64,000 nucleotides of DNA from Escherichia phage EF1-1. Positions within the stretch are counted from its first letter, which is position 1. Every line of letters begins with the position of its first letter. Of this stretch, positions 59,460-59,680 are shown piece after piece. The stretch is taken from the sequence record PQ571289. One strand, given 5' to 3'. The notes under the pieces are model-generated. The model was not told the DNA's origin, ran no database searches, and saw only the letters and a program-made list of their open reading frames with translations. A program made the position numbers and the translations under genes.

Positions 59460-59680
59460 GTTGTTGATGTAGTACTCTGTACTCAAGTACTGTACTCCGT
59501 ACTAGATTAATAATTATTAAATATTAATAATAAATAATTATTAGATCTAACAAACAGGTACAGTGTATCAGAACTGGTACGTACAGATCAACTTCTATCA
59601 ATTAAAAAATAAAATAATAAATTATTATAAATAATACTTGATCTATAAATCAGTATGAAGTACAGTACGTAACATCTTAA
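59460..59680. other. divergent intergenic control region: GTAC iterons flanking AT-rich palindromic tract (candidate origin/operator)
   Basis: 10 GTAC motifs incl. 3 GTACAG; 40-nt A/T-only palindromic run 59507-59546; divergent genes either side. Confidence 0.4.
59472..59503. repeat. five tandem GTACT repeats at about 7-nt spacing
   Basis: GTACT at 59472, 59479, 59487, 59492, 59499. Confidence 0.8.

Follow-up and report, generated by a model that had tools for sequence, protein, structure and literature searches.

E. coli rrnB P1 and the strong early promoters of the T-odd and T-even coliphages are familiar examples of tandem or divergent sigma-70 promoters that have A/T-rich UP elements. 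Promoters also form part of some phage origins of replication. In the primary origin of T7, an AT-rich region comes after two tandem promoters, phi1.1A and phi1.1B, and T4 oriF and oriG each combine a promoter with a downstream unwinding element. Iteron origins (lambda ori, P1 oriR, pSC101 and RK2) place at least three helically phased direct repeats of ~17-22 bp by an AT-rich unwindable tract. The operators of the E. coli Trp repressor (trp, aroH, trpR and mtr) contain half-sites defined as GNACT (PMC9413887). A search of the literature on Phapecoctavirus and rV5-like phages found no promoter mapping, transcriptome or origin.

The phage locus described here resembles rrnB P1 and the T-phage early promoters in that promoter hexamers are spaced by 17-18 bp, an A/T-only tract abuts the -35 hexamer on its upstream side, and two tandem promoters, together with a divergent partner, precede the first early gene. 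It differs in that its stretches of pure A/T are 26-50 nt long where a canonical UP element is ~20 bp, and in that the phAPEC8 clade has a second, inverted copy of one promoter segment. The reading favored here, with guarded confidence, is that this stretch lies inside the main region of early transcription control, bears a lineage-specific palindromic duplication and is not an iteron origin.

The proposed early control region and its predicted promoters

The window (the whole stretch of 64,000 nucleotides of Escherichia phage EF1-1 that was analyzed) belongs to the genome of a Phapecoctavirus, a phAPEC8-like myovirus of the subfamily Stephanstirmvirinae. Over positions 58500-60500 it shares 99.5% identity with Escherichia phage SKA64, and ~64 further records match at 95-99%. 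The complete 152-kb SKA64 genome was used for whole-genome counts of GTAC, A/T-only runs and GC skew. The locus is a 481-nt gap between the homologues of phAPEC8_00139 (minus strand, start 59217) and phAPEC8_00140 (plus strand, start 59699). To the left of the gap, small early genes and genes of DNA metabolism form a minus-strand block; to the right come a pair of small genes, 11 genes for tRNAs, and those for lysis, terminase and structural proteins. A sequence-only reading of this DNA had proposed a control region between two divergent gene blocks with these same starts; both starts are correct, and so is the placement of a control region between divergently transcribed blocks. The divergent promoter pair itself, P_L and P1, lies to the left of the segment on which that reading had centered. 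The features of the region are as follows (window coordinates):

59262-59290, minus strand: P_L, predicted leftward sigma-70-type promoter of the DNA-metabolism block (-35 TTTACT 59290-59285, 17-nt spacer, -10 TATCAT 59267-59262)
59392-59421, plus strand: P1, predicted rightward promoter (TTGACT 59392-59397, 18-nt spacer ending TGc, TACCCT 59416-59421)
59431-59451, plus strand: palindrome TTAAC...GTTAA enclosing the leader box CGAGCGCAGCGAG (59435-59447), a possible GCGNAGC mini-hairpin
59472-59503, plus strand: array of five GTACT units (GTACTCTGTACTCAAGTACTGTACTCCGTACT), phAPEC8 clade only
59487-59668, no strand assigned: large imperfect palindrome of ~180 bp, left arm (59487-59543) a diverged inverted duplicate of the right arm (59613-59668)
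59506-59543, no strand assigned: AT tract 1, 38 nt of A/T only that form an imperfect palindrome between TAGAT and AGATCTA, clade-specific
59544-59599, no strand assigned: center of the large dyad, with GATC at 59544 and 59586, GTAC at 59558, 59577 and 59581 (GTACGTAC) and a small hairpin GGTACAGT...ACTGGTAC
59600-59636, plus strand: AT tract 2, a 37-nt A/T-only, UP-element-like run directly upstream of the P2 -35
59638-59666, plus strand: P2, predicted rightward sigma-70-type promoter (TTGATC 59638-59643, 17-nt spacer, TACAGT 59661-59666)
59688-59701, plus strand: Shine-Dalgarno GGAGG (59688-59692) and start codon (59699) of the first plus-strand gene, the phAPEC8_00140 homologue

The homologous gap was compared in phiWec188 (same genus, more distant), phi92 (Justusliebigvirus), Klebsiella phi1_175008, Citrobacter Tr1 and IMG/VR relatives. 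All lineages compared share one order of elements: P_L, P1, the leader box, a variable leader, an A/T-only tract, P2 and the ribosome-binding site of the first plus-strand gene. P_L was located by consensus scan; its counterparts at this position are TTGACA-17-TATCAT (Klebsiella phi1_175008) and TTGACT-17-TACCAT (Citrobacter Tr1). Within-clade variation was followed in an alignment of 10 phAPEC8-type genomes (A1), in which P_L shows no variation and the promoters and leader box are invariant; the AT tracts vary in length by slippage.

P1 reads TTGAC(A/T)-17/18-TGcTACCCT across lineages, and its TTGAC and TG.TACCCTA are invariant in 10 instances from five lineages and three genomic sites (alignment A3). 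The leader box begins ~14 nt beyond P1, ~10 nt past the expected P1 start. Its CGAGCG(N1-2)AGCGAG is invariant in the same alignment, where only the center varies (C, A or AT) and the flanks are fixed. With a core that is constant throughout, alignment A3 provides no covariation for the leader-box hairpin, and the outer stem does not agree from copy to copy. The leader that follows the box is variable (~150-200 nt) and contains GATC-bearing words (AGATCTAACAGAC, GATCAAC); the AGATCTAACA(A/G)AC and GATCAA(C/T) of the dyad center are also present in other lineages.

P1 belongs to a class of promoters with the pattern TTGACT-N17/18-TG(C/G)TACCCTAA. The CGAGCG(N1-2)AGCGAG box, which has a possible GCGNAGC mini-hairpin core with tandem G.A pairs, comes 8-16 nt beyond TACCCTA. 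Members lie at 59392-59447 (plus strand) and 18731-18786 (minus strand) in the window and at 82073 in SKA64, a position outside the window. There are three per phAPEC8-type genome and at least two per phi92-type genome, and the Klebsiella and Citrobacter relatives also have them, always before a long leader. Since P1 is one of a class with three copies per genome, it is read as a transcription signal. To our knowledge, this combination of promoter and box has not been described. Recognition by a phage factor is one possible role of the box, and protection as a 5' hairpin is another.

P2 ends 32 nt ahead of the start codon of the first plus-strand gene. It matches the consensus at 8 of 12 positions, which is below the cut-off of the consensus scan, and has counterparts in relatives (TTGACT-18-TAGAGT, TTGACC-17-TACACT and TTGACC-TATAGT). 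The TTGA and TA...T columns are invariant in the P2 alignment (A2), and P2 is without variation in phAPEC8-type genomes, one error-prone record excepted. An A/T-only tract of 26-50 nt, its length varying by slippage, directly precedes the P2 -35 in all six aligned lineages. Because the hexamers stand out as invariant columns in alignments A2 and A3, AT tract 2 falls exactly at the UP-element position of P2, and the GTACs at 59660 and 59665, which overlap the P2 -10 and start region (gTACAGTACg), are the -10 and start sequence of this promoter. From this conservation we infer that P_L, P1 and P2 are active promoters; AT tract 2 is most likely a UP-type element of P2.

GTAC repeats, A/T-only tracts and the large palindrome

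The GTAC repeats and the A/T-only tracts are real and far beyond chance. The five GTACT units start at 59472, 59479, 59487, 59492 and 59499 (spacings of 7, 8, 5 and 7), and the remaining GTAC sites are at 59558, 59577, 59581, 59660 and 59665. GTAC is among the most avoided palindromic 4-mers of the window (73 observed, 179 expected, observed/expected 0.41), and 10 of the 73 sites lie within 200 nt at this locus; the next densest 250-nt stretch has five. The Poisson probability of at least 10 GTACs in one 200-nt window is 8.5e-14, or ~5e-9 across all window starts. SKA64 has 154 GTACs where 464 are expected (observed/expected 0.33), and the locus is its sole such cluster.

AT tracts 1 and 2 are the two longest A/T-only runs of the 152-kb SKA64 genome. 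The two arms of AT tract 1 (59508-59525 and 59526-59543, 18 nt each) are 89% self-complementary. Of all 40-bp duplex windows of the genome, those at the two tracts are the two with the lowest stability (-33.6 and -34.8 kcal/mol; mean -50.3, standard deviation 3.3), and the 200 bp that span both tracts are the least stable of the genome by a clear margin. The sequence-only reading had described an easily unwound tract, which agrees with these values, and had placed all GTAC motifs correctly. It gave the A/T-only run as 40 nt, where the run is 38 nt (59506-59543), and did not include the second A/T-only run (37 nt, 59600-59636).

The array and AT tract 1 (~59461-59543) are present in every phAPEC8-type record examined. 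They are absent from phiWec188, phi92, Klebsiella phi1_175008 and Citrobacter Tr1, which keep the remaining region. The arms of the large palindrome match at 71% over 56 nt, and their local alignment reaches a score of 45, where dinucleotide shuffles give 19.5 +/- 3.3 and none of 500 scored as high. The match is not confined to A/T sequence. The non-AT parts of the arms, GTACTGTACTCCGTACTAGATT and GTACTGTACTTCATACT-GATT, score 27 against 14.6 +/- 2.8, a score reached by none of 1000 shuffles. The 3' part of the array is an inverted copy of the P2 -10 region, and AT tract 1 belongs to the inverted duplicate of AT tract 2. As judged from these alignments, the GTACT array and AT tract 1 are shown to be a copy, inverted and diverged, of the P2 segment. 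A further local duplication, GTACTCTGTACT and GTACTCCGTACT, 20 nt apart, lies within the array, and the GTAC cluster is therefore largely the product of repeated copying of one promoter word, GTACAGTAC. The inverted copy keeps the -10 TACAGT, has two of six matches at the -35 position and is without the TG extension.

Some isolates have variants of the palindrome. Phage nieznany is without 59562-59631 (70 bp comprising the center and most of AT tract 2), dw-ec is missing 13 nt from the array, and in phAPEC8 itself unit 3 of the array is GCACT. Both nieznany and dw-ec are sequenced isolates and are viable if their assemblies are correct, although the deletions could be assembly errors.

Origin, operator and leader RNA readings

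The sequence-only reading saw in the iteron-like repeats and the AT-rich unwinding element the layout of an origin or, alternatively, operator sites for a regulator of the two divergent operons. The iteron layout is not supported. The locus is like iteron origins in having repeats by an AT-rich unwindable tract (A/T-only runs of 38 and 37 nt) and GATC nearby (59544, 59586 and 59640). It is unlike them in its repeat units, which are 5 bp long against 17-22 bp and follow each other at irregular spacings of 5-8 bp without helical phasing. The array is restricted to the phAPEC8 clade and is a diverged inverted copy of the P2 segment, AT tract 2 abuts a conserved sigma-70 promoter, and the right-hand GTACs are the -10 and start of that promoter. 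Absence of the array from close relatives whose primase/helicase is 87% (phiWec-type) or ~70% (phi92-type) identical also counts against an iteron origin. No initiator gene is found next to the repeats: among ten flanking proteins, the sole Pfam match is an AP2/HNH endonuclease and the PHROGs families are of unknown function, with no initiator or DNA-binding family among the neighboring small proteins. The only AAA+ protein examined is generic and is located elsewhere in the genome. DnaA boxes are not enriched. The one at 59358 (TTTTGCACA) is attributed to chance because the window has 11 matches against 10.5 expected. A search for GTACT arrays in IMG/VR gave 33 matches, mostly plain (GTACT)n microsatellites or unrelated sequences, with one beside a primase-helicase-like gene, and was not informative here.

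An origin of another kind, activated by transcription in the manner of the T7 primary origin or T4 oriF, is the leading alternative, at a rather low probability. Host RNA polymerase starting from P1 (and P2) would open the A/T-only tracts, where a T7-like primase-helicase would load; in the phAPEC8 clade, the GTAC arrays could offer additional sites for loading or priming. The resemblance to the T7 and T4 origins lies in promoters that read into the most meltable DNA, a T7-like replisome (gp4-type primase/helicase and Pol I-type polymerase are encoded) and the dispensability of iterons and an initiator protein. P1 reads into tracts that start 85 and 179 nt downstream of its -10, the succession of promoter and A/T-only tract is kept in every lineage examined, and the tracts, as the least stable duplex, are a feature unique in the 152-kb genome. 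The locus is also the point at which gene orientation and GC skew diverge, and no origin has been defined so far for this phage group (PMC3606486). The cumulative GC skew has a minimum within the region, but the SKA64 genome has four such switches, all of which track gene orientation, so that the skew merely mirrors the direction of transcription and is not evidence for an origin. The authors of the rV5 study reached the same conclusion on GC skew and were unable to define an origin (PMC3606486). Unlike the T7 primary origin, the locus has promoters of the host sigma-70 type, and its conserved AT tract lies upstream of P2, exactly where a UP element of P2 would be, and not just downstream of a promoter. 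The 70-bp deletion in nieznany removes most of tract 2 and the center, and the GTAC array, being unconserved, cannot be a general recognition element. The more specific proposal that P1, its GATC-containing leader, the A/T-only tract and P2 together are a host-transcription-fired origin of the rV5/phAPEC8/phi92 group, with the GTAC arrays as both-strand loading or priming sites for the gp4-like primase-helicase, is distinctly unlikely. Since the locus is the least stable DNA of the genome, it would be the best single place for origin mapping by marker frequency.

An operator role for the GTAC words, the alternative offered by the sequence-only reading, would be compatible with the pair that sits on the P2 -10. 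It is quite improbable that they form an operator array for a GTAC-recognizing regulator of phage or host that would bind the array and the P2 -10 pair, repress or loop P2 and block read-through from P1. One 10-mer occurs in opposite orientations at 59487-59496 and 59659-59668, its second occurrence covering the P2 -10, and the GTAC sites have been kept despite genome-wide avoidance. The spacings of 5-8 bp are not helically phased, the neighboring genes offer no candidate regulator, and the motif is missing in sister lineages that have the same promoters. One version of this proposal invokes the host Trp repressor. The region has GNACT half-sites (five GTACT, one GAACT and two AGTAC), GTACT is a perfect half-site (PMC9413887) and the GCACT of phAPEC8 unit 3 still fits; one tandem GTACT pair is 8 bp apart as in mtr, whose operator (GTACTCGTGTACTGGTACAGTG, read from the MG1655 genome) the array resembles. 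Unlike the E. coli operators, the phage region has no inverted half-site pair with the required 8-bp spacer, and no two of the five GTAC sites in the array have starts 14 nt apart. The four natural operators reach 16.8-20.0 bits when scored leave-one-out with a position weight matrix derived from them, and the best score in the region is 6.8 bits. Matrix score and spacing together rule out a canonical Trp repressor operator. No LexA box (CTGT-N8-ACAG) was seen by eye. A structured leader RNA, in which a ~180-nt multi-branched fold of the P1 transcript closed by GUACUGUACU/AGUACAGUAC would govern the first gene through processing, stability or translation, is very improbable. The single strands of the region do fold better than shuffles (z -3.1 as RNA, -3.6 as DNA), with a closing helix between the array and the P2 segment (GTACTGTACT/AGTACAGTAC), and the other P1-type promoters also have long leaders that begin with the conserved box. 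Such a fold is a trivial consequence of inverted duplication. The leaders of other lineages fold no better than expected (z -1.3 to -2.3), no Rfam 15 covariance model matched 59000-60700 at E-values up to 1, covariation offers no support, and transcripts from P2 would bypass the structure.

Under the favored reading of an early control region with a clade-specific palindrome, AT tract 2 would recruit the alpha subunits of RNA polymerase to P2. The phAPEC8 clade alone would have acquired an inverted, partly re-duplicated copy of the P2 segment, giving the imperfect palindrome of ~180 bp. Because this copy keeps TACAGT and an A/T tract but not the -35, it would at best bind polymerase weakly for leftward transcription, in competition with P1 and P2. 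Read-through transcripts from P1, or single-stranded DNA, could fold back onto the P2 segment. The inverted duplicate may otherwise be nearly neutral, with little function of its own, and the sequences of nieznany (without 59562-59631) and dw-ec (13 nt fewer) would argue for the dispensability of the center and of parts of the array. Several observations weigh against a promoter-only reading. P2 has just eight of the 12 consensus positions, tracts of 37-38 nt exceed a canonical UP element, and the least stable 200 bp of the genome would suit an unwinding element equally well. GTAC is avoided elsewhere and the phage group is strongly sensitive to restriction, yet 10 sites are kept in ~64 genomes, which hints that selection is acting and that the duplicate is more than neutral.

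The comparison provides a concrete map of the early control region (P_L, P1, P2 and the leader box) for Phapecoctaviruses, which are widely isolated candidates for therapy. It separates the conserved parts from the clade-specific palindrome and so helps in the choice of sites for engineering or reporter insertion. It also advises caution, as a striking cluster of repeats can arise when a single promoter motif is copied and the word is purged from the rest of the genome.

Restriction sites, genome ends and neighboring genes

Other palindromes are under-represented in the window as well (observed/expected 0.37 for GGCC, 0.38 for CCGG and 0.50 for CTAG), whereas GATC is not (1.02). This phage group is reported to be very sensitive to restriction systems (PMC8594841), and the depletion of palindromes fits restriction-site avoidance. 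The BI-EHEC record OL505078.1, ~98% identical to the window, differs from it at 30 of 45 alignable GTAC sites, compared with ~10% for other palindromic 4-mers. The change is almost always from HGTAC to HATAC, within genes included, and GGTAC is mostly spared. These differences look like systematic base-calling errors at modified GTAC in an error-prone assembly. If so, this would mean that hosts have a GTAC-specific modification, and hence restriction, which fits the genome-wide depletion of GTAC.

GATC, usually within (T/A)AGATC(T/A), recurs in the P1 leader of every lineage. The leader has three copies here (59544, 59586 and 59640), five in phiWec188 and five in Tr1, each within ~200-500 nt, and the genome-wide frequency is ~1 per 211 nt. 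The alignment consensus of the relatives has a further GATC in the P2 spacer. A phage gene for an N6-adenine methyltransferase sits between the primase/helicase and polymerase genes.

The phi92-like phage BME3 has a direct terminal repeat of 342 bp, as determined by PhageTerm (PMC12210895). The start of the BME3 record aligns to ~5.2-6.0 kb of the window, 53 kb from the locus, which rules out a packaging site or terminal repeat at the locus. A noncoding stretch of ~1.3-1.5 kb among small early genes (window ~4700-6010) is aligned with the start of the BME3 record, and the physical ends of the genome are therefore probably there, as far as this alignment can tell.

The phiWec-type phages have an extra minus-strand gene of 70 aa between P_L and P1 (2073-2285 in phiWec188, corresponding to window ~59290-59340), which marks the intergenic region as an insertion hotspot. 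A free-standing HNH/AP2 homing-endonuclease gene (201 aa, 57489-58094, minus strand) lies between the homologues of phAPEC8_00134 and 00135. It is not at the same site in SKA64, tuntematon and ASO2A, so the endonuclease insertion is polymorphic; the SKA64 paralogue is at another site (9256-9864) and shares 39% identity (66 of 171 aligned positions). The homologue of phAPEC8_00143, a 98-aa protein (62794-63090, plus strand) in a PHROG of unknown function, starts with MPKLKRGRGRPT. By eye, this start is AT-hook-like (RGRP) and may be relevant to the A/T-only tracts.
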